Part shown: positions 6,688-54,619 of the stretch, piece by piece
Position numbering within the stretch: position 1 is the first letter of the stretch
Layout of the letters: each line of letters begins with the position of its first letter
Virus record (IMG/VR): IMGVR_UViG_3300022561_000003
Source: a virus
Direction: 5' to 3' (one strand)
Length of the DNA stretch: 64,000 nucleotides
Notes under the pieces: model-generated
What the model was told of the DNA's origin: nothing
Database searches by the model: none
Seen by the model: only the letters and a program-made list of their open reading frames with translations
Made by a program: the position numbers and the translations under genes

Positions 6688-6858
6688 ATGAATAATTATA
6701 TATTAAAAATAAACTTTGAATCAAGCAAACATTGTTTTGAATGTCCACTTTGTGATGAATTTGATGCTTGTATAATGCAGAATAATAAGGAATTCGATAC
6801 AATTAAAAAGCAGATGAATAAATGTCCATTAATTGTGAAAGGAGATAAATATGTTTAA
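6688..6858 (+). CDS. Small Cys-rich protein (56 aa, not in ORF track)
   Basis: AAAGGAG RBS; MNNYILKINFESSKHCFECPLCDEFDAC...KCPL. Confidence 0.6.
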   Translation: MNNYILKINFESSKHCFECPLCDEFDACIMQNNKEFDTIKKQMNKCPLIVKGDKYV

Positions 6859-21214: not shown

Positions 21215-22633
21215 TTAAACGAATTTAAATATATATCCTTTATATTGTTTCCCTTCGCTGTTGCATGCTTTTGTTATACTACAAATACGCAACAGAACAC
21301 CAAATAATCTCTCTGACTCTCTTCCTAATTTGCTACAACTTTCAAAGATTCCAAGTGATACCTGATTTTTAAATATCTCTACTTTTTTGCAACCCTTGTG
21401 ATTCCGTTTATATATTTCTTCTTCGACATCGTAGTTACACCATCCGATATCGTTTCCTTGTTTTAAATAATTTCTAATTGTTGCAGTGTGCAATTTCATA
21501 ATGATACCAATTTGATACGTTGATAAATCGTTATTATTTTTCTTATAGCCACAAGCGGTTTTAACAAAATTATTCAATGTAAATTTTATACATTTGTCCC
21601 AATCAATTTTATTTAAATCAAATAAATGGGACAATGAACTAATTAATATATTGTTTTTTATATATTTTAATTCAGAAATATTTGAATTAATTCTTATGAC
21701 TTCTATATCATGTATATTTGCTGTTTTATCTTTATAATCATCTATTTCTTTAGATTTTTCTTTAGTTTGCCCACTCATATTGTTATCTTTAAAATGAAAA
21801 CCCCCATCCATTTCTACTATATATTTTTTATTATTTAGTTCAAAATAAAAGTCGTATCTCATAGGTTTTATCCAATCAGGATTATATTCTGTTTCAAAAA
21901 GTATATTCAATTGTTCTAAAATTGAAAACATAAATTTGAAAGGATATGACTGCCCATCACTGCAAGAACATCCAAGTGAATGGTTACTATAAATTTGGCT
22001 AATACAAATTTCTTTTCCTTTAATCCTACTACAATCAGGACATATTGATATTATTTTTTTACTACTTTGACATGTATATAATTTTGCCTCATCATACCCA
22101 CCTTGAAAATATGGTATCATCCATGATGCTGTTGTTGGTATATCATTAATGCCTTCAACGGTAGTTTGATTTGCACAACATGAGCATCCCTTTCCCTTTA
22201 TTAAATTAGATTCTTCCATCCATCCTCCAGTCCAACCACATTTATGACAGGTGTACTTATACCATTTCCAATTACAGTTGTTTTTATCTTTTCTATATTC
22301 TCTATCCATAATTGATAAGTCTCTTTTACTATCTTTAAATTTTGTTCCTATATCTATTTTAAATTTATTTGTTTTTAAACATAGTAAACCACCTAGCCTA
22401 CAATTTTTTAAATTACCTGCACTTATTTTAAAGATATCGTTCTCTAAATATTTGATAAACAAATATTGCGTTTGGCTTTCATAATCAATAATTTCAAATT
22501 CGCCTTTTATATCATCATATGCGAACTTGATTTTACATCCTACACTTTTTATCCAATTAATATTTTTATCATTATATCCATTTTGCTTTGGTAAACTCTC
22601 TAAAAATACCTTCCTCACTATATAAACCTCCAT
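21215..22633 (-). CDS. Zinc-ribbon / PD-(D/E)XK-type putative endonuclease (paralog of 60675)
   Basis: CHKCG, CSCC, CPDC; RYDFY...IVEMDGGFH...D..K. Confidence 0.7.
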   Translation of the reverse strand: MEVYIVRKVFLESLPKQNGYNDKNINWIKSVGCKIKFAYDDIKGEFEIIDYESQTQYLFIKYLENDIFKISAGNLKNCRLGGLLCLKTNKFKIDIGTKFKDSKRDLSIMDREYRKDKNNCNWKWYKYTCHKCGWTGGWMEESNLIKGKGCSCCANQTTVEGINDIPTTASWMIPYFQGGYDEAKLYTCQSSKKIISICPDCSRIKGKEICISQIYSNHSLGCSCSDGQSYPFKFMFSILEQLNILFETEYNPDWIKPMRYDFYFELNNKKYIVEMDGGFHFKDNNMSGQTKEKSKEIDDYKDKTANIHDIEVIRINSNISELKYIKNNILISSLSHLFDLNKIDWDKCIKFTLNNFVKTACGYKKNNNDLSTYQIGIIMKLHTATIRNYLKQGNDIGWCNYDVEEEIYKRNHKGCKKVEIFKNQVSLGIFESCSKLGRESERLFGVLLRICSITKACNSEGKQYKGYIFKFV

Positions 22634-22694
22634 ATTTTCACATAATAGAAAAACACCTACTACATAGTAAGTGTTTTAAGTTTTTACTTATTAT

Positions 22695-22982
22695 TTAACT
22701 GAATTTTACGCAAATCCAACAATTAGTGAGATTGCCAGTAGGAGAGTGAACATAAATATTACTATTTATTAATAGAGTTTGTCCGCTTTTATTTAAAATC
22801 CCCGGAAGTACAGTTACATCATCTCCAGCAATTTTAATATCTGCTGTTTTGTTATCTGAACTTACTGCAACCACTGTGCCAGGCCATTCTTTGACTACTT
22901 GTTCTTTACTTTTTTCTTTTTTTATTATATCTCTTATTTGAGATATTAAGAATTCAGAAAAATCCTTATCGTTAATATTCAA
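22695..22982 (-). CDS. Small baseplate/tail protein
   Basis: OB-like GTVVAV..TADIKI; position in the tail module. Confidence 0.5.
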   Translation of the reverse strand: MNINDKDFSEFLISQIRDIIKKEKSKEQVVKEWPGTVVAVSSDNKTADIKIAGDDVTVLPGILNKSGQTLLINSNIYVHSPTGNLTNCWICVKFS

Positions 22983-22996
22983 ATTACATCACTTCC

Positions 22997-24151
22997 TTAA
23001 AATACTATATCTTTACTCTTGACACATGAAATTGACATATTCCCTTGGTTTTCTAATTGTAATGTTATGCTTTGAGTTAGAAATCTTTCCTCGTTTAATT
23101 TTAATGAATAATCTGTTAAAGTAATAACTTGGTCGACATCTAAATGAAACATAGGCATTGCATTAATACTAATTGATGTTTGTAATGCTACTACTCTTTT
23201 TAATTCATACTCTGCTCTCTGTTGTGCAAGTGAATTTGTAGTAATATTATCATCTACAATTGGTGTTTTAGGTTTACTCCCTATTAATTGAACCCTTGTA
23301 CCACTTTGTAAATTATTGTTTATTGCAGTACCAGTTGCGATACTTCCATTTATATTAGAGCCTATAACAACTATAGTATTACAAACATCTTTAAATTTAT
23401 AAGTGTTGGTAGCACCTAAATAATGAAAATTATCTGTTGAATAATCCCATTGACTTCCTTTTATTGTATCTTCAACATCTTTTTCAAATACGAGGTTGCC
23501 TAATTCATTATAGTAAACATTACAAGATAAAATTTGTGCAAATTCTATTAAAACTTCACCATATGTTGAACTTCCTATATCTTTACGAACTGTATATGGA
23601 GTTATTTCTGATGTAAAATTGTTACATAAAATAGGAGGTAACTTATCATTATTTAATGCTAAAATACCTCTAATAGTTGTATATATATTTGAACCTAATG
23701 GTGCTTGATAAATACTTGTAAAATTACCGCCCATATCTCCCGATAATAAACTAAATTTGTCTGAACCATTCAATGTTAAATATGATTCACTAAAATTGCT
23801 TATAGCTTCAGGATCTGATATTACAAAAATCCCTTGTGAGAAAAAGTAATCCTCATCTTTATTTATTGCAATTCCCAACGATAGTCTAAATTTTCTATTT
23901 ATCCATATATTACTATCTTCACTAGGAATATATTGACCGTTGATATTTTTTAACTTAATTGAAACACTTCGTCTTATTCCGTTTTGACGAGTTATTGAAA
24001 GTGAACCACTTAAAATATCCGCTGTAAATTCTGAAGACACACTCTCATCTTCAGATCTCAACCATTCAACCTTACATCTTTTTTTATATTTTCCTGTCTT
24101 TATTTTATCTATATAGTCTTGAAATGTAGACATATCTATATCGCCCCACAT
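22997..24151 (-). CDS. Baseplate hub / minor tail protein
   Basis: Position; RSVSIKL, YYNELGNL, AQQRAEYEL. Confidence 0.65.
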   Translation of the reverse strand: MWGDIDMSTFQDYIDKIKTGKYKKRCKVEWLRSEDESVSSEFTADILSGSLSITRQNGIRRSVSIKLKNINGQYIPSEDSNIWINRKFRLSLGIAINKDEDYFFSQGIFVISDPEAISNFSESYLTLNGSDKFSLLSGDMGGNFTSIYQAPLGSNIYTTIRGILALNNDKLPPILCNNFTSEITPYTVRKDIGSSTYGEVLIEFAQILSCNVYYNELGNLVFEKDVEDTIKGSQWDYSTDNFHYLGATNTYKFKDVCNTIVVIGSNINGSIATGTAINNNLQSGTRVQLIGSKPKTPIVDDNITTNSLAQQRAEYELKRVVALQTSISINAMPMFHLDVDQVITLTDYSLKLNEERFLTQSITLQLENQGNMSISCVKSKDIVF

Positions 24152-26111: not shown

Positions 26112-29100
26112 TTAGACTAAAGCAACTTTTGTTTTAAAACTACTTATAAATTCATCTACATTATTTGCCACCACTTTATCAATATGATAATTATGAATAA
26201 TTGGTGCAACCACAGATTGATTATTATGACCAGATGTATTGCTCATATTTATTTTGTCCATAATATTTTCCATAGAAATTAAAGCAGAGGGAAGATAAGA
26301 TACAAGTTGTCCGAAATCTTGAGTTTGAGTTGATGATAATACTCTTTCTTTTGTATCTACCATAGCTAATCTATTACCACTAAATGAACCTACTTCTCCA
26401 CCACTTGCAAATTTAGGAACAACCCCTTTGCCTGATAATATCTTTTCATTAAGTAATAATGTAGCAGCCCTATCAGAGCCTGTAGCCCCTCCACCTTTAG
26501 ACACTGTAATATTAACTCCACTACCATACTTTGCTTGTAGCATTGCTTTATCAACCTCTGTGTTTACTGTAATAGAAGCTGAGTTACCAACTCCTGTAGT
26601 TCCTTTTACAGTGGAAGATAAAGTACCATTTGCTTGTGATAATAGGAGAGAATCTTGTAATGATTTAGCAGAATCTACATCTGTTGTAAGTTGTTTTATT
26701 ATTTCAACCCAATTATCTCCATACGTTTTCTTTAATAATTTTAATGAAGTATCCGCAAGGAGATTCATATCTGCATAATGGAGAGTTAGAAGATTAGTTT
26801 CTATAAGTTGATCTTTTTCAAGTGTTACAAGTTTTTCAGAATATGCTAAATCTTTTGCAGTTTTTTCATCTGCTAGTGATTTTTTTAACGCATTAAGAGA
26901 ATCAGTTTGATGTTTTAGTGCTATAGATTTCTCAAAATCTGCATTAGATTTAACTTGGTCATTTAAGGCTTTTTGTGCGGATTCAATTGCTTTAGGATCT
27001 GCAATATATTCTTTTGTAAATTTCCCATCTGCACCTTGTTTTATTTGCATAACATTTTTTTCTTTTAGTGTATTTTGTAATGCAGTTTGTTTTTCTATTA
27101 AGTCATTCTGATTTTTTAATCTATCTTCAATTTCTTTATTAATATCATTTACAGTATTTAGATTGTCAATTTGTGTCTGAATTGCATCTTGTTGTTTTTG
27201 ATTTTCTTTATCATAAATTTTAATTGAATCTTCTGCTGATTTCATTGCAAGTTTCTTTTCGTTTAATGCTAATGTATCATTTCTATTAGCACCAGTTTCA
27301 CCAGCACCTGCTTTAACAGTTATGTCTAAATCCGAGTATTTCTTTTGTAACATTTCTTTGTCAATTTCTGTATTTACAGTGATAGTTTTACTTGGTACTC
27401 CACCATAAATTGAAGATGCTAATTTGTTTTTCTCATTGTCTTGTTGCTGTTTTAAGGCTATTTCATCGCTAACTCTTCTAGATTCTAAAAGCGAAGTTAC
27501 TCTCTCTTTTGCTTGAGTTTTAAGTGCAAGAGTTGTGTCTAATTCCATTTTTAATAATTTAGATTTCAAGATAATCATTTCTTGTAATTGTGCTTTTGTA
27601 TATTTACCACTTTTTAATCCATCTTCTACAAGTTTGATTTCTTGTTTTTTAATGTCTAATTCTTTATTGAGATTAGATACAATTTCTTTTTCGTATCCTT
27701 TTCGTTTTAAATCATCATCTGTTATTTCTGCTTGACTTGACAAAATATCGTTTTTACTTTCATATTCTGCAATTTTATCATCATATTGTGCTACTCTAAT
27801 GTTGAATTTTTGATATGCAAATCCTGCTAACTTTTCTTCCCAATCAGCTATATCAGCTTTATCTTGTTCAATTTGAGCTTTGAGTTTATCGGAACCATTA
27901 TCTGTTGTGGATTCTCCTGTTGATGATGTAAAGCTTGATTTTCCTCCTGGAGTATTGTTCTTTACTTTATTTAAATAAGATCGAGTTCCTTCGCCATATC
28001 CCATAATAGCTTTTTCTACATCTCCACCAGCCCATGAGATACGTTTAACAAGATATTTAGCAATTGCGTCTATAGATGATTTAGCATCAGTTCTATCAGA
28101 TAAACCTTCTTCTTTTGCTGTACTATAAAGGAATTGTCCAAGTCCAGTTGCACCAGATTTAGAATTTCTAGCTAAGGGATTAAAACTTGATTCTGTCTGA
28201 ATAATTCCAGCTATTAGATTAGGATCTATTCCATATTTAGAACCAGATTGATTTATCCAATCTTTATATTTACCATTTGCATATCCACCAGCATAATTTC
28301 CTGAAGATGTATTCGATGTCATAGTAGATTTAGAAGATTTATTTGTAGCAGATTCTACAGATAACATTGATTTAACATTTGCTTCATTAGTTTTTATGGA
28401 TTGTTGAGTTAGGGTAATTTTCTTTTTGATAAGAATTGCTTCTTTATCTAATCCGGCGATATATGCATCAGAGTTTGGTGCAAGCTTAGATTGAGATATT
28501 GCAAGAAGTTTAAGTTGATTATCTAATTCCTTGATGGCCTGTTTTTGATCGTTTATTGCATTAGTGGCTTGTTTATTTGCATCTGTGAGAGCTTTAGTAC
28601 CTTTTGTTACTTTTTCTTTAGATTTACCAACATCTTGAAGAGAAGTATCTACAGAAGTAATTATATTCTTTAATTTAAAGTAATCATCAATTGATTTTAC
28701 AGTTTCTCCTGCTCCACCACTACTAGCTTGAGATGCTAAACTAGCTTTCTTACCTAAGTAATATGATTCTTCGTCTGTGGCTCCACTAGCTTTACCAAGA
28801 GTTTCAAATTTCTTTTGGATTATATCTAAGTTAGCAGCATATGCCATTAAGTATGCATTTTTAGCATCTATTGCAGTTTTAAAATTAGCAATATCTGTAA
28901 GGTAAGCTCCAGCTATTTTCTTAATTTTATCTGCGGTTACTTGTAATTCATCCTTTGCTGCTTTCTGAACAGTTACAATATTATCTCCTTTTATTTTTGT
29001 TAATTCTTGTGCAAGGAGTTTATCATCGTTCATAACTGCGAGAAGGGAAGGATAAGTTGATGCAAGTTTTAGGATTGATGCTGTATCCCATTCGTTAGTT

Positions 29101-31221
29101 TCTGCATGTTTTTCTAGGATTGTGTTGATTGAGGATACGATAGGAGTAGTTGTTTCCATTGCTTTAGTTACTGTGGTCATTACGTCTGCTAGGGTTTTAG
29201 CTTTTATTGTAGCTTTTTCAGTTGCTATTCCCATAGTGCTTAATGTTTCTGCTAGAATTTTACTAAACAATTCATATTCTGTTGTTGGCATTGAGTTCTT
29301 TTGACTCGCTAACAAAGAAGACAGAGCTACTTTTTGCTTATCAATTTCTCCTGGAGTATGACTGGTTTTTTTATTAAACTCGTCCACTGATTTTGAAAAT
29401 TGTTTAAATATATCTTCCTTGCCTAACTCCACTAGCGAATCTGAATAACTAATAATTTTATCTTTATTAATTCCTCCGGACTCTCCCATTTTATCAAAAG
29501 AATTTATTATATTTGTTGCTACAGTTCCAGTAATTCCTGCTGCAACTACTCCATCTTCTGCTAATTTTTTAAACCATGCAGAGTAAACAGCAACAATTTC
29601 TTTCGATTTTGTCATACTATTATAAGCTGTATCTCTTGTTTTATTAGCCTCTGAAATTACAAAACTATCTATTGATGCTAAATCTTCTTTTGTAAGCTCA
29701 GCTTGAACACCCATACCTGCAAGAAATTCTGCTTTTTTAGAAGCATATGCCTTTTCATAATCTACTCCCTTACCTTTTGAAACTTCTGAAGCACTATCAT
29801 AAATGTCTTCTTGCTTTGTAATATTTCCTTTCGATTTATCATAATTGCCTGCTGCATCGTCAATTGATTTCTTTGTAGCTGCTTTATCTAATTCAGCATT
29901 ATTTTTCTTCATTGCTGAGGTTTGTTCCTCTATAGATAAAGTTTGATCTCTTATAATAGAAGAAGAATCAGGTAATAGTTTGTTTAATTGTTTTACAACT
30001 TCTCCATAACGTTTGGTTTCTTCAGCAGTAAGACTAGTTTTCTTAGCTAATTCTTCATGCTCTGTTATTAAACCATCTATTGAACTAGTTTTATTATTTA
30101 TAGTATCTAAGGCAGATTGCATATCTTGAACTGCATTCTTTTGTGCTTGAACCATTTTTATTATTGCGGTAATTCCAACCGTTAGAATAAGAACTCCTGC
30201 TAACATTGCAGCTTTCATAACCCATGCACCAGCGGTTACAGCTTTCTGAGAAGCGTTAAGAGCTTCATTACTAGCGGTTTGTCCTGCTGTACTTGCAGTA
30301 GAAACATTTAAACTTGCGCTTGTTTGAGCTATTACTATATTGTATTGTTCTTGTGTGATAATTTTCTGTTTTAATAAACCATCTGCTTGTGCTTGTGTTA
30401 TTGTTCCAGCAGCAACTTGTCCTTGTACTCCAGCTTCATATATTGAACGTCTTCTTAATGCTAGGTTATATTCTTCTTGTGTTATTATCCCTGATGCTAA
30501 TTGTCCTTGCAATTCTTTTTCTGAAAACATACGTTGTAATAATTCAGCCTTTCTACCTTGTGCAGATAAAGTACCAGCAGTAACTTGTGCATTCAAACTG
30601 CTTTCTAATGCAATTCCTCTTGCAAGGCTACTCTGAAGTCCAGTTTGTGCAGCACTTAAAACGTTAGTACTAGTAGAAGCAAGTCCAAGTTTAGTCCCAA
30701 CTACTTGTAATATACCAGCAGATTCTGTTGCGGTTATATTTCCTGCTGCAACTTGAGCCGATAAACTTGCAGATGCTACTTGATAAGCCTTTGCTGCGGT
30801 TGTAGATTTTTGGTATCCTCCAGTAAGAGCAGATAATCCATTAATTCCTGTTTTATCTAGGAATTGTGTGAAATTTAATCCTGTAAATATTTTAGATGCT
30901 GAAGAAAATGACTTCATTACAACTCCAACTTCAAGTAGTGTAAATAACCATTTTTTCATTCCTGGATCTGCTTTAGAAAGAGCTTGTGCAATTGATGTTG
31001 CTCCATTTGCTACGCCTTTCAAAGTTGTCATAAGTCCTGCCTCACCGACGCTAATATAAAGTTCTTTGATTGAAGATTTAAAAACCTCAACTTGTTTAGA
31101 AAATGTTTGCATAGCCTTCACGTTTTCCTTTGCAGAGTAACCTACTGAGTCTGCACTTTCTTTTGCTATTGCATCTATTTCTCCCCAGCCCTTGGCCAAA
31201 ATCGAGATGTCGTTCTTTCTC
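26112..31221 (-). CDS. Tape measure protein exon 2, with lytic transglycosylase (SLT) domain
   Basis: Frame stays open upstream of the track's TTG (..RKNDISILAKGW); SLT motif GIDPNLIAGIIQTESSFNP...GATGLGQF. Confidence 0.88.
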
Positions 31222-31626
31222 CATGCTTGATGTTCATATGAAATCGCTAGTTTTCATACAGTTCTCATGTAATAAATTACAATGAACTTCTCATACTTTT
31301 ATATGAGAACAGACTATATCACAATCCTATTTATTAGATAGGATTCTCCCCATTTCCCTACGCTTGTAGGTACGAGATTTCTCTCTAGTCGTTGAAGTTT
31401 ACTCTGTTCGAGTCTTACTTGCTGATTACCCATTGTTTAGTAGCACTTAGGATTTAACCATATGCCATTCTGATTATTTTTTCTACTTTCATCACCATCA
31501 CGCTTAGACATATTTCATTCTTACGTTGTGGTTAATCAGACTTTAGGGACTTCCAGCAGTTAAAGGAGTTTTGATAGGTTAAACTATCGGTCTATACTTT
31601 TTACAAATATAGGGAGCTTTAAGGTT
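31222..31626 (-). mobile_element. Group I intron (IA2-like, no ORF), about 405 nt
   Basis: P1 GGAGU/GCUCC with U.G pair; P4 UGCUGG (in 31541-31561)/UCAGCA (31420-31427); P7 UUCAACGACUA (31386-31396)/GAUAUAGUC (31312-31320); P7.1, P7.2, P8 and P9 hairpins. The 3' splice G is uncertain (31222 is in frame; 31226 and 31219 are alternatives). Confidence 0.88.
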
Positions 31627-33356
31627 ACTCCACCCATTGCATCTAGAATATCATTTGAAGATTTTGTTCCTTCTCCAAACTTATCTAATGCTATGTTTGT
31701 ACTTGTCATTATGTCTTTAAATGTGTTGAAATGTTCAGCATCTTTCATAACTGTAATTCCATAACTTTCCAATACACTGATTGTTTCAGGTCTTAAAAGT
31801 CTAGTTTCCATAGTTTTGATAGCATTTCCAATTTCAGAACCACTTTTTTGTGTCGCCTCACCGATCACCACAGTAATTGCGTTCAAATTATTAAGGTCAA
31901 TTCCTAGGTTTTTTGAGCTCGACCCAGCTCTTTGCATTGCCTCTGCCATGTCATTTGATTTTACTGCATATTTATCACCTAGTTTATTCCATCCATCTAT
32001 AATCTTTTCTGAGTCTTGAAAACTCATGCCTAGCTGCTTGACGGCCGAAACTAAGTAGCCGGTCATTTCTGTTGCTGAGGCTATTTCTGTAGTATTCAAA
32101 CCTAACATAACTGACTTTGACATACCCGTTAAATCTGACTTGCTACTTATTCCTGCACGAGCTAACTCTGTCATAGCAGTTTGGACTTCTTGCAATGGTT
32201 GACCAAAGTCTTTAGAATATGCCACAGCTTGTTTTCCATATTCTTTTAAATCATTATTTGTCACATTTTCAAGGGTTCTGGACAAATTATTAAGCGAAAC
32301 TTCGTACGAGGAATTTGTCGTAATTAGTTCTTTTATAGAACTTGTTAATAAATATATATTTGCTGCGGCGAAGGCGTAGGCTCCGGAAATTTTTGCACGA
32401 TCCATAAGGCTGTTGTTTATGTTTCCTGAACCCATCGCTAATTGAGATTCCCCAGATATTTTAGATAATTCTTTACTCATTTTATCGTATTCTTGGCTAC
32501 TTGCTTTTTCTTGAGTGTAAAGTTTTAGTGCGGATAATGCTTGTTTTTCATTTGCTGCTATAATTTTAGCCGTTACATCCTGCCTAGATTTAACCTCTTG
32601 GTCAATAGCCAATTGAACTCTTTTAGCCTCATCTGTATATTTCTTGGCTTGTGAGGTGGCTTGCATTCTAGCAGTACCTTCTAATCCTAACGAGGATATT
32701 AATGCTGTTGATTTACTTGCAAGAGCATTTAAGTCAGATATTCTAGCTTTCTCTGATGAGTTTAAAGTTAAATAAGATTGATTAATTCCGTCTAATTGAG
32801 ATTTATATCCAGCATTATACAAAGTTGTATTTTGCCCAGCATTTTTCTTTTGTGCTTCAGACTGTCTATTTATAGAGTTGGCCAAAGCATCTAAATCTTT
32901 TGCCTGTTGTTTATAATCAGTTGTATTAGCTGTAGTTGTTACAGTATTGCCTGTTTTATTATTAGTGGTATTATTAGTAGTTAATTTTTTACCTGCTGCA
33001 TTAACGGATTCTACCATCTTTACAGTTTTGTCTATTGCATTTGCAGTATCGGTTATAGTTTTAGTAGTTGTCTTTGTGATTTCTGAACTTACTTTCATAA
33101 GAGCTGCCGTTAAATTCTTTACAAAGTCATCTATTTTAGTCGTAGTTATATTTGTATTACCCATACTATCTAATTCTTTTTTAATTAATTTCAATGTATT
33201 TATTGCAGTGGTAGCTTGTTTAGTAGTAATAATATCAACATTAATCTTTGACATATCAATAGTTTGTAATATTTTATTAGCGTCATTAATATTTTTTTTG
33301 AGAGTGGAAAGTCCTAATTGGAGCTCTCCGACCAATTTTCCCTGTCCTATTGCCAT
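31627..33356 (-). CDS. Tape measure protein exon 1 (TP901-type core)
   Basis: AMTELARAG...AMQRAGS...GSEIGNAIKTMETRL; the track's ORF runs on into the intron after DAMGG. Confidence 0.9.
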
Positions 33357-33385: not shown

Positions 33386-33411
33386 AAAAAGAGTAGATGA
33401 TTCCTACTCTT
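33386..33411 (-). terminator. Terminator-like hairpin just upstream of the TMP RBS
   Basis: AAGAGTAG...CTACTCTT plus T-tract on the minus strand. Confidence 0.6.
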
Positions 33412-34744
33412 AACTTACTAAGTTATTATTTAGTTGTTGTTTGTAATTTTGTTTGAATTCTTCAAATTGTTCTGGGGTATTTTTCCCATATCCATATTCT
33501 AAATGAAATCTATCATGCACCTCGTTGGACAAACAAACGCCCAATCCATATTTAGCATGCAATTTAGTACAAGTATCTACTAATAAAGCACTTTCTATTT
33601 CAGTATACATATTCATTTCAGTATATATTGGTAAATTGGTTATACTAAGTGTTTCTTGAATTATTTTATCAAATCCATATAAATGATGGACTACATTAAA
33701 TCTACTACCACTTAAAATACATTTATAGTAACTCTCTTTAATGGAGTCTTTTTTCCATTGTAATATATTTGAACGCAGATATTGAGAAAGAGTGCTTACT
33801 CCACCATTCCATCTACAATTACCTTCTCCAATTTTACTCTCCGTAGAACATATGGGGCATCTAAAGTCTCGATGTTTTGAACCGTTAGTGCTTCTTTCAA
33901 AATCATCATGTTTTCCATCTGGACATTTAAACCAACAAATTTCAGTTGAGCTTGGAGAAACATCATGCGCAGATTTTTTATTCTTATCCGAATATATATA
34001 TGATAAATTTATTTCTTTAAGTAAACTACCTAAGCTATCTCCTTCATTAAATACATTATGGCTACAACAAGGACATCTTGTTCCGTTTTTAAAATTCCAC
34101 CAAGCAACGATATAATCCTCGTGATAATCTTTGTTTTGGCATTTAATCCATATCTTTTTATCTGAACCTAAACTTATTTTCCAAGGATTTAATGTATTTT
34201 TATCTGACCAATATTTATCTAAAAAATCTTCTCCTAAATTGTCTATGCTCCATTGAGCAAGACTATCTTTGGGATGAACCTGTTTACCTGCACAGAAGGG
34301 GCATCTACAACCTTTTGAAAAATGACGAGGTTCTATTTTATAACTATCATGATAAGAGTTGTCTTGGCAAAATATAAAAACATCTTTTGTTGACATCACA
34401 GTGATATTCCATGGATTATTTCCTAACTCATTATTTTTATCCCAATCCCAATACTTTTCTAAAAAATCTTTATTTATGTTGTCTATATTATATTGTGCAA
34501 ATGAATCTCTTGGATGAACTTTTTGTCCAACACAACATGGACATCTTTTACCTTCTGAAAAGTGGCTACAACTGATTTCATAGCTTTCATGATAATCTGT
34601 TTCTAAGCATTTTATCCATACTTTTTTATGTGCTCCCTTAGTATACTCACTCCAATGTTTTTCATTCTTTTCATAATCCCAATAGGGTTCTATCACTTTC
34701 CAAAATTCCTCGTTTGTCTTGCATACAATTCGTTCTTTTAACAT
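33410..34744 (-). CDS. Treble-clef zinc-ribbon repeats plus HNH endonuclease (true start MLKERI at 34744)
   Basis: Repeated W.C..H...G.RCP.C units; CILSG..VVHHL...VHDRFH; AGGAG RBS before 34744. Confidence 0.8.
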   Translation of the reverse strand: MLKERIVCKTNEEFWKVIEPYWDYEKNEKHWSEYTKGAHKKVWIKCLETDYHESYEISCSHFSEGKRCPCCVGQKVHPRDSFAQYNIDNINKDFLEKYWDWDKNNELGNNPWNITVMSTKDVFIFCQDNSYHDSYKIEPRHFSKGCRCPFCAGKQVHPKDSLAQWSIDNLGEDFLDKYWSDKNTLNPWKISLGSDKKIWIKCQNKDYHEDYIVAWWNFKNGTRCPCCSHNVFNEGDSLGSLLKEINLSYIYSDKNKKSAHDVSPSSTEICWFKCPDGKHDDFERSTNGSKHRDFRCPICSTESKIGEGNCRWNGGVSTLSQYLRSNILQWKKDSIKESYYKCILSGSRFNVVHHLYGFDKIIQETLSITNLPIYTEMNMYTEIESALLVDTCTKLHAKYGLGVCLSNEVHDRFHLEYGYGKNTPEQFEEFKQNYKQQLNNNLVS

Positions 34745-34929
34745 ATTATATTTCACTCCTAGTTTTATATTTTCACTCGAAATTAAATAAGGTGGCAAGA
34801 TAAGCGAGTGAAAACTTATCATTCCAAAAGGTTTATAACTCCTCCTGTTGCCACTTTTTATAATAATATTAAATTATTATTTAGTTGTTAAAACTTGTAT
34901 CAATTGCATAAATAGTCTTCCTTACCTAA

Positions 34930-35013: not shown

Positions 35014-35415
35014 TTATTTATAATAATTTAAAAGTATTTGTATATTATTTTTTAAATTTATTTTGTTCTCTGGAGTAGGTTTATCACATTCAATTATTAA
35101 ATCTCCGTTTACTTTTGATGATTTACTTAATAAAAGTTTTTCTGTTTCAGTGAGAGGGGAGGAGTTATCATTTTTCAAATCTGATTTAAGTAATGAATCT
35201 AAGTCAGTTATTATTAATGGTTCCTTTTGATTATATAATTCAGTGTATTTTGTTACTATTAATTTAAGTTTATTATCAAATTCAGTATTTACATCTTTCT
35301 TATATTCATCTTTTAATTCTAATGTACTAGGAATTTTTAATCCATCCGACTTAGCACATCCGAACATCATTATCGTCAACATCATAATTCCTATAACAAC
35401 TATTACCTTTCGCAT
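35014..35415 (-). CDS. Lipoprotein moron
   Basis: MRK + hydrophobic stretch + FGC lipobox; own promoter-like TATAAT upstream and terminator (about 34975-35006) downstream. Confidence 0.75.
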   Translation of the reverse strand: MRKVIVVIGIMMLTIMMFGCAKSDGLKIPSTLELKDEYKKDVNTEFDNKLKLIVTKYTELYNQKEPLIITDLDSLLKSDLKNDNSSPLTETEKLLLSKSSKVNGDLIIECDKPTPENKINLKNNIQILLNYYK

Positions 35416-35601
35416 ATATTGTAATCCTCCATTTATTATTTATTTAATATAATATGATTATACACCAAATTTTGTGAATTATACAATATATGAGAAAAAT
35501 AATAAGTAGTGTTAATAATAAAACAGCGATTTTATAAGATAGGTCTAAAAAAAATAGAGGAACACCGAAGATTTAATTTCGTATGCTCCTCTATTGGTGT
35601 T

Positions 35602-35934
35602 TTATTTTTTCTTTTCATTATCCTGTGATAATGCTATCATCATATCTTTTGTAACTCTTGGCAGATTAGATTTAACTCTACCTTTAGAATCTACTTCTTT
35701 ATGATTTAGTGGATTTATCTCCTTAAGCATTTTTGACGCATCAGTTGCATATGAGTTTCCAATTATACCCTTATATGATTCAAAAGCAATATGTATATCT
35801 ATTTCTTTTATACAATCTTGAAAATCTATATAAGCAAATTCTCGGACTTCTTCTGGTGTTTTTTTATAATGAAGACCTACTAAAAATACTCCCCTCCTTA
35901 GAGTTATTCCTGTATTGGAGGTTGATTGTTTTTT
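35602..35934 (-). CDS. Tail assembly chaperone, -1 frameshift extension (G-T fusion about 212 aa)
   Basis: No own start codon; open in the -1 frame from slippery A AAA AAC (35934-35928) to TAA at 35604-35602. Confidence 0.8.
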   Translation of the reverse strand, partial: KKQSTSNTGITLRRGVFLVGLHYKKTPEEVREFAYIDFQDCIKEIDIHIAFESYKGIIGNSYATDASKMLKEINPLNHKEVDSKGRVKSNLPRVTKDMMIALSQDNEKKK

Positions 35935-36292: not shown

Positions 36293-37711
36293 TTAAATAG
36301 CTTCTTGTAAAACCAAATTATTATTTAATTGTTGTTTTAATATTTGTTCAATTTTATTATCTATTAATAATTTATATGTTTCCCTTTTATTATCTGCTTT
36401 ATAAGATATTTCTAAATAATTATATCCTTTAGATTTAGAATATATCCGTTTATATCTATCTTTTAATTTTGTATAATGTAACTCTTGCTTTGGTGTAGTG
36501 TTTTTAGTTTTTGCTTGCATTATATGATACCCATTTATTCTATAATGTTGCTGTCCCATTACTTCACATAAAAGTTTTAACTCTAATACTTCATTATCAA
36601 AAGGCAAGGTATTATTAGTGCCCTTTCTTTTAGGATTTATAGGAACAATAGTACACCTATGTTCATGCAATATTGTATAATCAAATGTATTTAAATATAG
36701 TCGCACCTTTTCTTGAAGAAGACTTTCATTTCGTTCTTGTGTACATTCTGGACATCGGAAATCACATTTATTAGCATCATATATTTTCGTGAAATGTTCC
36801 CCATGTTTTCCGCAAGGGCACTTCCAATAAATTTTATTATTATTCATTGGTGAATATTCATATGGTGATTTCTTATTTCTATCTGACCATAATTCTAATA
36901 CTTGAGGAAATAAAGTCCCAAGTGAATCTAAAATATGCAAATGACCAACTTTATGTGAACAACCGGGACATCGACATCCTTTATTAAATATACAAGGGGA
37001 AGATTTATAATCATCATGATAATCCTTATCTTGACATTTAATATATATCGGATTATTTGAACCACAATAATCAATTTCCCAAGGACTGATTGTATTTTTA
37101 ATACTCCAATACTTATCAAGGAAATCTTCACATATATTATCAATTCCCCATTGAGCAAAACTGTTACATGCTTTACAATTCATACTACCTTTATCAAATG
37201 TAAAGCTAGCAATATGTTTCTTTTCACTGGGATGGATACCCATAGGACATTTAAAATAATACTTTTTTGCTGTTCTGCAATTAATTTCACTAATTTTATA
37301 TTTATTAAGTTTTTCATCCCATCTATCAATTAAATCTTTTCTTCCGTTTTCATTGCACCAATCTTCTAGACTCTTGCCACCATTTTCTAATTTGGATTTC
37401 ATTGCTCTTTTACCAGCATATAACTTAGTTGCACAAACATTACAATAATAGGTATTGTCTTTGTGGACTTGCTTTGTATAATCACTCCATGCTATATTTT
37501 TAAGAATATCTCCGCATCCATCACATTTTACGTTAACTTTTACACCGGATGCCTTAGATAAATCTTTTATATTCACCATTAATGTTGTCCCTTTAGGACA
37601 AACTAATTTTCCTTTAGAACCCACTATTTTATTTATTCTATATCCTAGATTTTCATAATACTCAACATTTCTAGGACTTATATTTATTTCAACGTGCTCT
37701 GTTATTATCAT
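36293..37711 (-). CDS. Zinc-ribbon repeat / PD-(D/E)XK-type putative endonuclease
   Basis: CDGCG, RCPGC, RCPEC; LPFDNEV..LLCEVMGQQHY...D..K. Confidence 0.72.
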   Translation of the reverse strand: MIITEHVEINISPRNVEYYENLGYRINKIVGSKGKLVCPKGTTLMVNIKDLSKASGVKVNVKCDGCGDILKNIAWSDYTKQVHKDNTYYCNVCATKLYAGKRAMKSKLENGGKSLEDWCNENGRKDLIDRWDEKLNKYKISEINCRTAKKYYFKCPMGIHPSEKKHIASFTFDKGSMNCKACNSFAQWGIDNICEDFLDKYWSIKNTISPWEIDYCGSNNPIYIKCQDKDYHDDYKSSPCIFNKGCRCPGCSHKVGHLHILDSLGTLFPQVLELWSDRNKKSPYEYSPMNNNKIYWKCPCGKHGEHFTKIYDANKCDFRCPECTQERNESLLQEKVRLYLNTFDYTILHEHRCTIVPINPKRKGTNNTLPFDNEVLELKLLCEVMGQQHYRINGYHIMQAKTKNTTPKQELHYTKLKDRYKRIYSKSKGYNYLEISYKADNKRETYKLLIDNKIEQILKQQLNNNLVLQEAI

Positions 37712-51613: not shown

Positions 51614-51689
51614 TGGAGCTTTCGATAGGATTTGAACCTACGCAAAACTGATTACAAAACAGACACTCTACCAACTGAGTTACGAAAGC
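51614..51689 (-). tRNA. tRNA-Thr(UGU) with encoded CCA and a weakened anticodon stem
   Basis: GCTTTCG/CGAAAGC acceptor, ACTC-AGTTGGTA-GAGT D-arm, TT-TGT-AA loop, GTAGG-TTCAAAT-CCTAT T-arm; two T-T mismatches in the anticodon stem. Confidence 0.7.
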
Positions 51690-51735: not shown

Positions 51736-51809
51736 AGAACGGAATGAGATTTGAACTCATATCTTATAATCTTATAGGAAAATGCTTTATCCAATTAAGC
51801 TATCCATTC
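51736..51809 (-). pseudogene. tRNA-like gene with a collapsed anticodon arm
   Basis: Acceptor GAATGGA/TCCGTTC, D-arm GCTT-AATTGGATA-AAGC and T-arm ATGAG-TTCAAAT-CTCAT intact; anticodon stem unpaired. Confidence 0.55.
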
Positions 51810-52177: not shown

Positions 52178-53452
52178 TTACATAACTATTAATCCATTTT
52201 TATTAAAATCCATATACATAATGTCTAATTCTTTCTCTAGTTTCCTGAGATGTGTATAGTCAATTCGAATTAATCTAATACCATTTTTATTACAATATTC
52301 ATTTTTTAAAATATCATGAGCTTGTGTAATTATGAATCTTTCATCCCCACCTAATCTTGTTGATGCTACAAAATGTTGTAATCCATCAAATTCAAGAATG
52401 TGGTTAAGTTTTGTTTGTTCTTTATCATCGAATATTGCAAAATCAAATCTTAGAAAACCACCTTTAGAACCTTTTAAATCTCTAAATATATATTCTTGTT
52501 TAAAATTAATTCCACCAGCAGTTAAAAACTTTCTTATTTTCTTTTCGCCTTTAGATTTATTACATAAAGGACATCCTGTTTCGCTTCTAACACCTTGATA
52601 ATTCTTTTCTTGAATTACATTAGGATGATTTTCACATATATATTTTATATGTTGTGAATCACTAGTATAAGTTTGCCCCTCTATTATATGTAACCCCACC
52701 TTCTCAAATTCGCTAAATACAAATTCTTGAGATAGTCTTGTTGCTAATTGACTATTTGTTATGCATTTTTTAGCAATATCTTTATTTCGTATTCTTTTTA
52801 TTCTTCTGTTTTTATCACACTCAGGGCATCTTGTTCCAGATAAAAAACTAGTTGGCAATATCTCATATTCATAATTATTACATTTTTTACAGTTATGTCT
52901 TATTTTTATCTTATTAGAATAACCTTTATATTCTTCTAATAAGGTATATTCGTCTTGAACTAATTCATAAACTCTATCTATTAGATTTTGAGTTGTCATA
53001 GTATTTTTTTCTATATATATCTTTGTTCCACATTCATTACATTGGCGTTTATTCGCATTTTTAAATGTATCAAATGTTGTTTTAAATATATTGCCACATT
53101 CACATTGAATCTCTATTTTTACTTTTGTAGAAATATAATCTTCTTTCTTAGTAATTAAAGTACATCCATTCCCTAATTCACCATTAATATATTCTTTTAT
53201 ATTTTCATAAGGGATACTCATAATTTTTTTAAAGTTATTTTGACTACAGATATCACATTGTTTTTTAGGATTTTTCTTAGTATAAAAGTTATCCAGTTGA
53301 ACTTCAAACTCAGTTTTATCAGAGCATCCACATCTTAATCGTAAAATTATTCTATTTCTTTTTCCTCTTTCTTCTACTCTATAATCTAAAAATTCACAAG
53401 AACTTTCCTTTTCTACATAAATTTTTAAACTATCACTATTCCATTTAGCCAT
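52178..53452 (-). CDS. Zinc-ribbon repeat / PD-(D/E)XK-type putative endonuclease
   Basis: CGC, CECG, RCPEC; LRFDFAI..ILEFDGLQH..D..K. Confidence 0.75.
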   Translation of the reverse strand: MAKWNSDSLKIYVEKESSCEFLDYRVEERGKRNRIILRLRCGCSDKTEFEVQLDNFYTKKNPKKQCDICSQNNFKKIMSIPYENIKEYINGELGNGCTLITKKEDYISTKVKIEIQCECGNIFKTTFDTFKNANKRQCNECGTKIYIEKNTMTTQNLIDRVYELVQDEYTLLEEYKGYSNKIKIRHNCKKCNNYEYEILPTSFLSGTRCPECDKNRRIKRIRNKDIAKKCITNSQLATRLSQEFVFSEFEKVGLHIIEGQTYTSDSQHIKYICENHPNVIQEKNYQGVRSETGCPLCNKSKGEKKIRKFLTAGGINFKQEYIFRDLKGSKGGFLRFDFAIFDDKEQTKLNHILEFDGLQHFVASTRLGGDERFIITQAHDILKNEYCNKNGIRLIRIDYTHLRKLEKELDIMYMDFNKNGLIVM

Positions 53453-53561
53453 TTTAATTCTAATCTCCTCTGTTTTTTATTTAAACAAAAGAGGGTAGGA
53501 ATACAGCCTACCACTCAACTCCAAAATCGAATCACAGTCGAAAGGAGTTATTATTTAATTG

Positions 53562-53777
53562 TTATACTTCTTCTAAAATATCTTCTGAAATTCTTTTATA
53601 TAATTCTGCTATATCTTTCTCAGCTTCTCTATATCCAATCTCGTACATTTCCAAAAGTGTACATCCTAAACATCCACCTTCAGATATATTCTCAATAGCG
53701 GAATTTACTAAATCCTCTTTAGTCATTACTTCTTCCTCACAATTTTCACCACATATACATTCTTTAGAATCACACAT
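53562..53777 (-). CDS. Small Cys/acidic protein (probable start MCDSK)
   Basis: GAGGAG RBS before ATG at 53777; CLGC motif. Confidence 0.6.
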   Translation of the reverse strand: MCDSKECICGENCEEEVMTKEDLVNSAIENISEGGCLGCTLLEMYEIGYREAEKDIAELYKRISEDILEEV

Positions 53778-54004
53778 ATAAATACATCTCCTCAATTCCT
53801 TATTTTTAGAAAGTCCTCAGTTAAGGTAGAGGACAACCACCTTGCGTTAGATTTACGCATTAGACGTTAATAGAAAATGACCACCTACACTTTCTCCATA
53901 TATCATGGGCTATTGGGCAGCAGTAATTTAAAATCTTTAGTAAACTAGACATAATTTTTAGTCACTAGCAATGGATTTTAACTCATTGGTAAATTATTAT
54001 TTAA

Positions 54005-54619
54005 TTATATAATGTCATCCAATGAACAATCTTCCCCTATTATAAAATCTACAAATCCATTTGCTTTAGCTTCTTTTGCAAACATATACCATTCGGAGCC
54101 ATATTTTTTATCATATACTTTTGAAGTTAATGTACTATGAGCTAATACAAATTCTTTAGTTCTCTTTTCTAAATCTTTATAGAAGTTTGCTGTGTCAGCT
54201 AGCTTTGACATTGAATTATACATAACCGAGGAACCATCATGCAAAAGAAAGGTTGAAAAGCTTTGAGTATATCTTTTATGACCAGCTATTCCAATTAAGA
54301 ATCCCATAGAATATTCAATTCCAAGGTTAACTGTATATACAGGAGTTTTAGAAGTTAAAATTGTATCAATGAGGGAAAATCCCGTTGTCACCATGCCTCC
54401 TGGAGAATTGACATATATGATTATTGGTTTTCTATCTTCTACTGCAAAACCCTTGTCTTCTTGATTCCATGCCATGATTCTTAAAACTGCATCCTCAATT
54501 AAATTATCATCTATCTCATTATTTATTATAATTTTCCTCTGTTTTAGGTGGTCTAAATAAATTATGTCATCATAGTAATAACTCACCGATGCTTTCATTT
54601 CTTGAACTTCTTTTTCCAT
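54005..54619 (-). CDS. clpP: ClpP-like protease subunit
   Basis: YVNSPGG, YSMG (catalytic Ser), LLHDG (His). Confidence 0.8.
   Translation of the reverse strand: MEKEVQEMKASVSYYYDDIIYLDHLKQRKIIINNEIDDNLIEDAVLRIMAWNQEDKGFAVEDRKPIIIYVNSPGGMVTTGFSLIDTILTSKTPVYTVNLGIEYSMGFLIGIAGHKRYTQSFSTFLLHDGSSVMYNSMSKLADTANFYKDLEKRTKEFVLAHSTLTSKVYDKKYGSEWYMFAKEAKANGFVDFIIGEDCSLDDII

Follow-up and report, generated by a model that had tools for sequence, protein, structure and literature searches.

Locus and host gene

All genes in this part of the window (the whole stretch of 64,000 nucleotides that was analysed) lie on the minus strand. Two ORFs of 590 aa (33356-31584) and 1695 aa (31199-26112) flank a region in which no long ORF is present. 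Pfam comparison detects a PhageMin_Tail domain in the first (PF10145, residues 379-572, E 3.5e-24) and an SLT lytic transglycosylase domain in the second (E 1.2e-18). In PHROG the upstream ORF matches several tape measure families, and a tail protein (phrog_1887) is encoded downstream. The PF10145 domain, the length and the position in the tail module identify the product as a tape measure protein. Uninterrupted homologues include P0002, with 2284 aa and 76% identity across the searched region, P0004, with 2305 aa and encoded in a Clostridium sp. genome, and P0005 (2064 aa). P0002 is named a TP901-family tape measure protein, and P0004 likewise bears the name tape measure protein. The earlier note, written from the letters and ORFs alone, had proposed that the tape measure gene is interrupted by a group I intron and that gene callers would report two genes here. 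Both statements hold, with PhageMin_Tail encoded by exon 1, SLT by exon 2, uninterrupted orthologues, and the 1695-aa ORF standing on record as a separate protein (P0001).

The source record is a 125.8-kb IMG/VR virus contig that CheckV estimates to be ~76% complete, and near-identical DNA occurs in glacier metagenome runs. The tape measure gene spans ~6.8 kb. In a relative the tape measure gene adjoins YomU- and YomW-type tail genes; judged from sequence, such neighbours fit an SPbeta-like siphophage with a YomI-like tape measure protein. YomI of SPbeta also has ~2280 aa with an internal SLT domain, as does the protein of this phage. Unlike the gene described here, SPbeta yomI is to our knowledge without an intron; the SPbeta introns sit in bnrdE and bnrdF. 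With the tape measure length factor of 0.15 nm per residue, 2280 aa suggests a tail of ~340 nm.

Two paralogous ORFs of ~470 aa are free-standing in the tail module (33410-34822 and 36293-37711, both on the minus strand), one of them directly upstream of the tape measure gene. Both contain DUF4379 treble-clef zinc fingers and give PHROG HNH/homing-endonuclease matches. They could be mobile nuclease genes; that they move the ORF-less intron is speculation.

Table 1. Features of the split tape measure gene and its intron, in order of transcription
Feature	Position	Strand	Basis or detail
Exon 1 of the tape measure gene	31628..33356	-	ATG 33356 to G31628; ORF list, orthologue alignment up to ...DAMGG
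PhageMin_Tail domain, PF10145	31641..32222	-	Profile positions 6-197 of 201
P1: exon GGAG (31631-31628) and intron U31627 with GCUCC (31617-31613)	31613..31631	-	MFE fold
Group I intron, IA2, ORF-less, 402 nt, UAACC...AUCAAG	31226..31627	-	Best-supported boundaries
P2 hairpin, 8 bp	31592..31612	-	Rfam alignment, MFE fold
UAG ending the exon 1 read-through, within P2.1 (31573-31588)	31584..31586	-	Translation
P3 5' strand (31568-31563) and P4-P5-P6 domain	31396..31568	-	Rfam alignment, MFE fold
P7 5' strand GACUA (31390-31386), P7.1 (31385-31374, GAAA loop), P7.2 (31370-31357)	31357..31390	-	
P3 3' strand (31351-31346), P8 (31345-31323), J8/7, P7 3' strand UAGUC (31316-31312)	31312..31351	-	
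J7/9 (UGUU), P9 (31307-31290), P9.1 (31287-31261), P9.2 (31258-31237)	within 31226..31311	-	MFE fold
P9.0: U31309-U31308 with A31228-A31227; terminal G31226	within 31226..31311	-	Covariation in relatives
Exon 2 of the tape measure gene, begins CA UGG AGA, includes the stop codon	26112..31225	-	Frame runs on as ...AWRKNDISIL
SLT lytic transglycosylase domain, PF01464, in exon 2	27951..28256	-	Residues 989-1090 of the exon 2 translation

Detection and fold of the intron

The region between the two ORFs contains a group I intron on the minus strand, as the earlier note had recognized. An Rfam search limited to 30900-31950 gave a match to RF00028 at 31616-31290 with 57.8 bits (E 7.5e-14), spanning model positions 1-253 and with that the whole model. 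The Infernal-type check put forward in the note therefore gives a score above the gathering cut-off of 50 bits when the searched region is limited. The match appears only when ~1 kb is searched and is absent from searches of the 64-kb window and of the ~126-kb record. A whole-window search at the gathering threshold reported only two tRNAs and missed the intron, a whole-window search with an E-value threshold missed it as well, and so did an RF00028 search of the whole genome. Default Rfam filtering misses this intron in sequences of 64 kb or 126 kb, so phage metagenomes probably contain more such introns than are annotated. Group I introns from other subfamilies could likewise hide in the window, for example in the gaps 35415-35904, 53452-54005 and 22633-22997. 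The tRNA genes are located at 51617-51689 and 51736-51809 on the minus strand (62.7 and 46.8 bits); the latter shows an atypical anticodon arm in the Rfam alignment.

The catalytic-core signatures listed in the note, including P7.1 and P7.2, are visible both in the Rfam alignment, where P2, P3, P4-P6, P7, P7.1, P7.2, P8 and P9 are aligned, and in the fold. Folding of 31631-31226 by energy only produced P1, P2, P2.1, P3-P6, P7.1, P7.2, P8, P9, P9.1 and P9.2, with a z-score of -3.1. The P3-P8 core is complete and contains the guanosine-binding helix P7 (GACUA/UAGUC), with P7.1 (GAGA-GAAA-UCUC) and P7.2 (CCUAC-AAGC-GUAGG) between P7 and P3. The P1 loop has 9 nt and P5 carries an extension of ~100 nt; the P3 5' strand and the P4-P6 region are highly conserved among relatives. 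Together, P7.1 and P7.2 are a hallmark of subgroup IA2 in the Michel-Westhof classification, and the presence of both places the intron in this subgroup.

Homologous introns were found by blastn in 141 phage records, with hosts including Staphylococcus, Bacillus, Clostridium, Lactococcus and Listeria. A megablast search of the phage collection with the locus and a tblastn search of the same collection with the start of exon 2 returned no match. In nhmmer the intron matches the family profile with E 3e-97, and a search of the 125.8-kb record with that profile revealed no second copy. The intron is real and its match lies far above chance. It is ORF-less, as previously noted: it contains no ORF of at least 60 aa, and the only ORF of more than 51 aa that extends into the 402 nt is the continuation of exon 1.

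Position of the splice sites

The intron most probably comprises 402 nt, from 31627 to 31226, with the first exon ending in GGAG, an intron reading UAACC...CAAG and a second exon that starts with CAUGG. Exon 1 then has 576 codons plus the first base of an alanine codon. Excision of 31627-31226 gives a protein of 2280 aa that reads ...DAMGGAWRKND... and aligns with orthologues free of gaps. The earlier note had removed 31222-31626. This excision of 405 nt does join the two ORFs in frame into a 2279-aa product with ...DAMGGV-RKND... at the junction, but when measured against the orthologues and an intron-less allele its 5' boundary deviates by 1 nt and its 3' boundary by 4 nt. The 3' splice site had rightly been flagged as uncertain.

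Comparison with intron-less orthologues, which the note had recommended, argues against its own product. Four intron-less proteins (P0002, P0003, P0004 and P0005) all read GG[A/I/T][W/M]RKN, one residue more than GGV-RKND; the 405-nt excision lacks this residue and the 402-nt excision fits. The DNA of a close intron-less orthologue reads GGT GGA GCA TGG AGA, and the locus studied here reads GGTGGAG-[402 nt]-CATGGAGA. The Ala and Trp codons of the orthologue are thus kept, split round the insertion. A 2.3-kb contig of a related phage from one glacier run (X1) aligns on both sides of the insertion and skips exactly 402 nt (31225 to 31628), with a 2-nt ambiguity of the joint owing to a repeated AG. 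This contig represents an allele of the same habitat that naturally lacks the intron. A further claim, that 31 nt on each side of the junction are identical between the alleles, was dropped, as the alignment hides differences near the ends of its pieces.

Among the three equivalent 402-nt registers only 31627-31226 ends in G. The last base of this intron is G31226, and the AA preceding it pairs with the UU of J7/9 to form P9.0. Because the intron-less alleles put U31627 inside the intron, the exon ends at G31628 and not at the U of a U.G pair. The pair between U31627 and G31617 exists, as the note had observed, and sits one base pair inside the 402-nt intron; it does not mark the splice site in this ribozyme lineage. 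Applied here, the textbook U.G rule places the junction wrongly and gives a protein that is one residue short. By eye, P10 pairing amounts to at most 1-2 bp under every splice option and does not discriminate between them.

Calibration with related introns

This intron shares the guide sequence AGCUCCCUA and P2 with introns of the phages LY2 and KKP_3916. In these two and in IMG/VR relatives the guide occurs with a GGAG/Y junction (a slash marks the splice site). The portal gene of LY2 has an exon ending in ...AACGGAG/UAAC and a 3' side ...CAACGG/CGUGGAAG. In phages B4 and Riley the portal gene has no intron and encodes NGAWKIP (AAC GGT GCT TGG AAG), and the corresponding NG/../AWKIP of LY2 is restored only by a cut after G. 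The tail tube gene of KKP_3916 has an exon ending in ...CAAGGAG/CGAC and a 3' side ...UUCAG/CUAACCGU. The homologues in Sundance, BcoS-136 and Thrax2, which have no intron, read GGQG-xx-RLLxWDYG, and the sequence GGQG/../ANRLLTWDYG of KKP_3916 is reproduced only by GGAG/CUAAC; a cut of the canonical type would remove the conserved Arg.

An IMG/VR pattern scan yielded 14 further loci with the guide sequence, located in portal, terminase-like, dUTPase-like and other genes. The same after-G rule applies at five other resolved sites (LY2, KKP_3916, L014 and L018, less clearly the terminase-like site L017a). At resolved sites the exon always ends in GGAG and the next base is U or C, the C being found in KKP_3916, L018 and L025. 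A cut after G combined with the terminal G is in frame and leaves 500+ open amino acids in our gene, 212 in KKP_3916, 188 in L014 and 194 in L018. The positions of P9.0, formed by J7/9 positions 3-4 and the two bases before the terminal G, covary: UU/AA in our intron and L018, CG/CG in LY2, UG/CA in KKP_3916, and GU/AC in L014 and L017. This covariation fixes the terminal G independently. A canonical 5' cut together with the P9.0-defined terminal G was considered and rejected; if the cut follows the U or C and the terminal G is kept, every resolved site is shifted out of frame by +1.

In the record of LY2 (Bacillus phage vB_BceH_LY2, ON366411.1, ~112,5xx-114,29x) the portal gene appears as two CDSs named portal protein, separated by two CDSs named transposase. 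The insertion is an IStron, consisting of a group I ribozyme and a TnpB split into two ORFs, with the junction GGAG/UAAC...ACGG/CGUGG. Its core and GGAG/Y junction are those of the intron described here, which differs in that LY2 carries the split TnpB. In Alicyclobacillus phage KKP_3916 (OQ846916.1, ~24,7xx-25,1xx) an ORF-less intron of 394 nt, absent from the annotation, interrupts the tail tube gene, whose two pieces are recorded as hypothetical proteins (52 aa and 208 aa). The host genes in LY2 and KKP_3916, portal and tail tube, differ from the tape measure gene occupied here. Thomasclavelia phage TR-TP1 (PQ571309.1, 23364-29880) has a tape measure gene in at least two pieces with HNH endonuclease ORFs between them, and the core in the first gap is 66% identical to our intron. 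It is another intron-split tape measure gene with a related core, although the HNH ORFs and a different P1/P2 set it apart. A ~204-kb phage contig (IMGVR_UViG_3300045988_156249, L017) has two copies of the intron family with internal ORFs at 6792 and 10831, of which one interrupts a terminase-like gene (…VVDEYRMIQG/) and the other a different gene (…ANLPVG/); both insertions recur in sister contigs of that sample.

Relation to group B IStrons

A splice site after G was already described in 2014 and group I introns in tape measure genes in 2008. In group B IStrons an IA2 ribozyme is joined to a transposon of the IS607 type (Tourasse, Stabell & Kolsto 2014, PMC4227781). They insert after targets that end in G (AGGG, TGGG, GAGG; AG in CsISt1), the U at the junction belongs to the element and not to the exon, the U.G pair lies one base pair away from the splice site with the loop immediately after it, and the elements usually end in CGG (PMC4227781). 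According to RT-PCR, BcISt1 of Bacillus cereus is spliced after G, and its intron begins with the U (PMC4227781). In a 2026 preprint every alternative 3' site of IStrons is reported to end in G, most of them in CGG, which agrees with the P9.0 reading given above.

The elements CbISt3 and CbISt4 of the Clostridium botulinum phages c-st and D-1873, listed as group B IStrons (PMC4227781), are among the best blastn matches of our intron, with 75% identity over nt 54-345. The copy in c-st combines the same core with a GAGG/UAAC junction and a TnpB gene. The ribozyme described here is of this IA2 type, having a G-ending target, U as the first base and the U.G pair followed by the loop. It shares with group B IStrons the UAAC start after a G-ending target, the shifted U.G pair and a terminal G after the P9.0 dinucleotide. 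It differs in its target, GGAG instead of AGGG, TGGG or GAGG, and in its 3' end, AAG with a compensating UU in J7/9 instead of CGG.

The insertion sequence component is absent: neither a serine-recombinase ORF A nor a TnpB ORF B is found near the 3' end. In relatives the ORF lies after P9.2, whereas here P9.2 runs directly into the 3' end. An inverted-repeat stem of 15-34 bp with more than 80% AU at the 3' end was not found either; in the MFE fold the only AU-rich repeat is a 5-7 bp hairpin inside P9.1 (31283-31266). Since TnpA, TnpB and the long AU-rich inverted-repeat stem are all missing, the intron is not an IStron, and by its sequence it classifies as an ORF-less member of the group B IStron ribozyme lineage.

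Bacillus cereus-group prophages have group I introns at three tape measure sites and in the tail tube gene (Tourasse & Kolsto 2008, PMC2504315). The novelty is therefore lower than the moderate degree that the earlier note had assigned. These introns, TMP-IVS1/2/3 and the tail-tube intron, are IA1 or IA2, often lack a complete endonuclease gene and occupy highly conserved positions in tape measure and tail tube genes of Firmicute siphophages (PMC2504315). The present case differs in its YomI-like host protein of 2280 aa with an SLT domain and in its insertion site; the earlier introns were also drawn with ordinary P1/P10 pairings.

Proposed splicing and alternatives

The insertion is almost certainly a genuine intron that must be spliced. 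The RNA family match, the fold, the homology, the reading frames and the intron-less allele are established by the analysis; from comparative data and experiments on a relative we infer both splicing and the exact bonds involved. In the late transcript the guide GCUCC would pair with the exon GGAG and the first U of the intron to form P1. Guanosine would attack between G31628 and U31627, after which the freed exon would attack behind the terminal G31226, placed by the 2-bp P9.0. Ligation would produce ...GGA G/CA UGG AGA... and a YomI-like tape measure protein of 2280 aa that has both the PhageMin_Tail and the SLT domain. In unspliced RNA the reading frame of exon 1 runs into the intron and meets a UAG after 14 codons, and translation would give the 590-aa fragment.

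Several observations speak against the 402-nt excision. Cleavage after G departs from the U found almost universally at position -1, the experiment that serves as precedent was made on a relative, BcISt1, whose target is AGGG, and the 3' end is AAG where group B IStrons typically have CGG. Canonical splicing, with a cut after U31627 and G31222 as terminal base, would remove 405 nt (31626-31222) and yield 2279 aa with GGV-RKND. It is in frame and chemically orthodox, keeps both textbook rules (a U at -1 that pairs with G, and an intron terminating in G) and uses a P1 with U.G that is predicted by the fold. We nevertheless regard it as improbable. It loses a residue, and with it the W/M position, found in 4/4 intron-less orthologues; it leaves unexplained why GCA UGG, the codons of the orthologue, stands in frame at the end of the supposed intron; and it does not match the 402 nt that the intron-less allele lacks. 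The AU before G31222 cannot pair as P9.0 with the UU of J7/9, whereas the AA before G31226 can. The related introns point the same way: an equivalent cut in KKP_3916 deletes the conserved Arg, a C instead of U occupies the position in KKP_3916, L018 and L025, which would be odd for a true -1 wobble, and RT-PCR of the related BcISt1 leaves the U out of the exon (PMC4227781). A ligated-exon cDNA with the junction GGAGCAUGGAG would be incompatible with the 405-nt excision.

A different possibility is that the intron is an inactive relic or that splicing is not needed, with the gene functioning as two fragments of 590 aa and ~1695 aa or the genome being defective. That splicing at the locus is deduced from comparison, that the record is incomplete and that an in-frame TTG is available at 31199 would all be compatible with this. 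Yet all core helices are intact with a score above the Rfam cut-off, and the orthologous frame is kept in both exons right up to the junction. The intron interrupts the PhageMin_Tail domain 4 profile positions ahead of its C-terminal end, the TTG at 31199 is ~19 nt from the nearest GGAG, a poor spacing for a ribosome-binding site, and the full-length relatives are all single proteins of 2064-2305 aa. A relic is thus very unlikely. Least credible, to the point of being hardly worth considering, is a cut after U31627 combined with one after C31225 (402 nt, 31626-31225, ...GGVWRKND), which keeps U at -1, gives a product as long as the orthologues and yields the same mRNA as 31627-31226 where the two bases match (KKP_3916, L014, L018), but makes C, C, C, U, G and U the last intron bases over six sites, in breach of the G requirement of the second step, and predicts U (Val) where allele and orthologues have C (Ala) in the tape measure and LY2 portal genes.

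An ice metatranscriptome run (X5) contains 4% of the locus words. Its contigs match only the intron core (31262-31582) with 85-90% identity and a depth of up to ~200, and none of them covers the exons of this locus. These contigs, which cover only cores of related introns and for that reason have no bearing on splicing here, are probably abundant excised introns of related phages or hosts and not transcripts of this locus.

Mobility and implications

In unrelated Firmicute phages, genes of several kinds (tape measure, portal, tail tube, terminase-like and dUTPase-like) harbour ORF-less copies at GGAG targets. It is conceivable, though rather doubtful, that these copies are miniature, non-autonomous derivatives of IS607-type IStrons that are still mobile at the DNA level in trans. 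Mobilization would then come from the TnpA/TnpB of complete IStrons, or from HNH genes that stand alone, like the two neighbours of this tape measure gene. As intron-plus and intron-less alleles coexist, the glacier population would in that case have been caught in mid-movement. The two alleles form a natural pair from one habitat.

The useful results are the corrected boundaries, the tie to the IStron ribozyme lineage and the recognition that the default Rfam filter misses this intron; the intron itself opens no new question. The tape measure protein of this phage should be annotated as one protein of 2280 aa and not as two genes. The ribozyme lineage that splices after G, known mainly from bacterial IStrons, is extended to ORF-less introns that occupy GGAG sites in several structural genes of phages.
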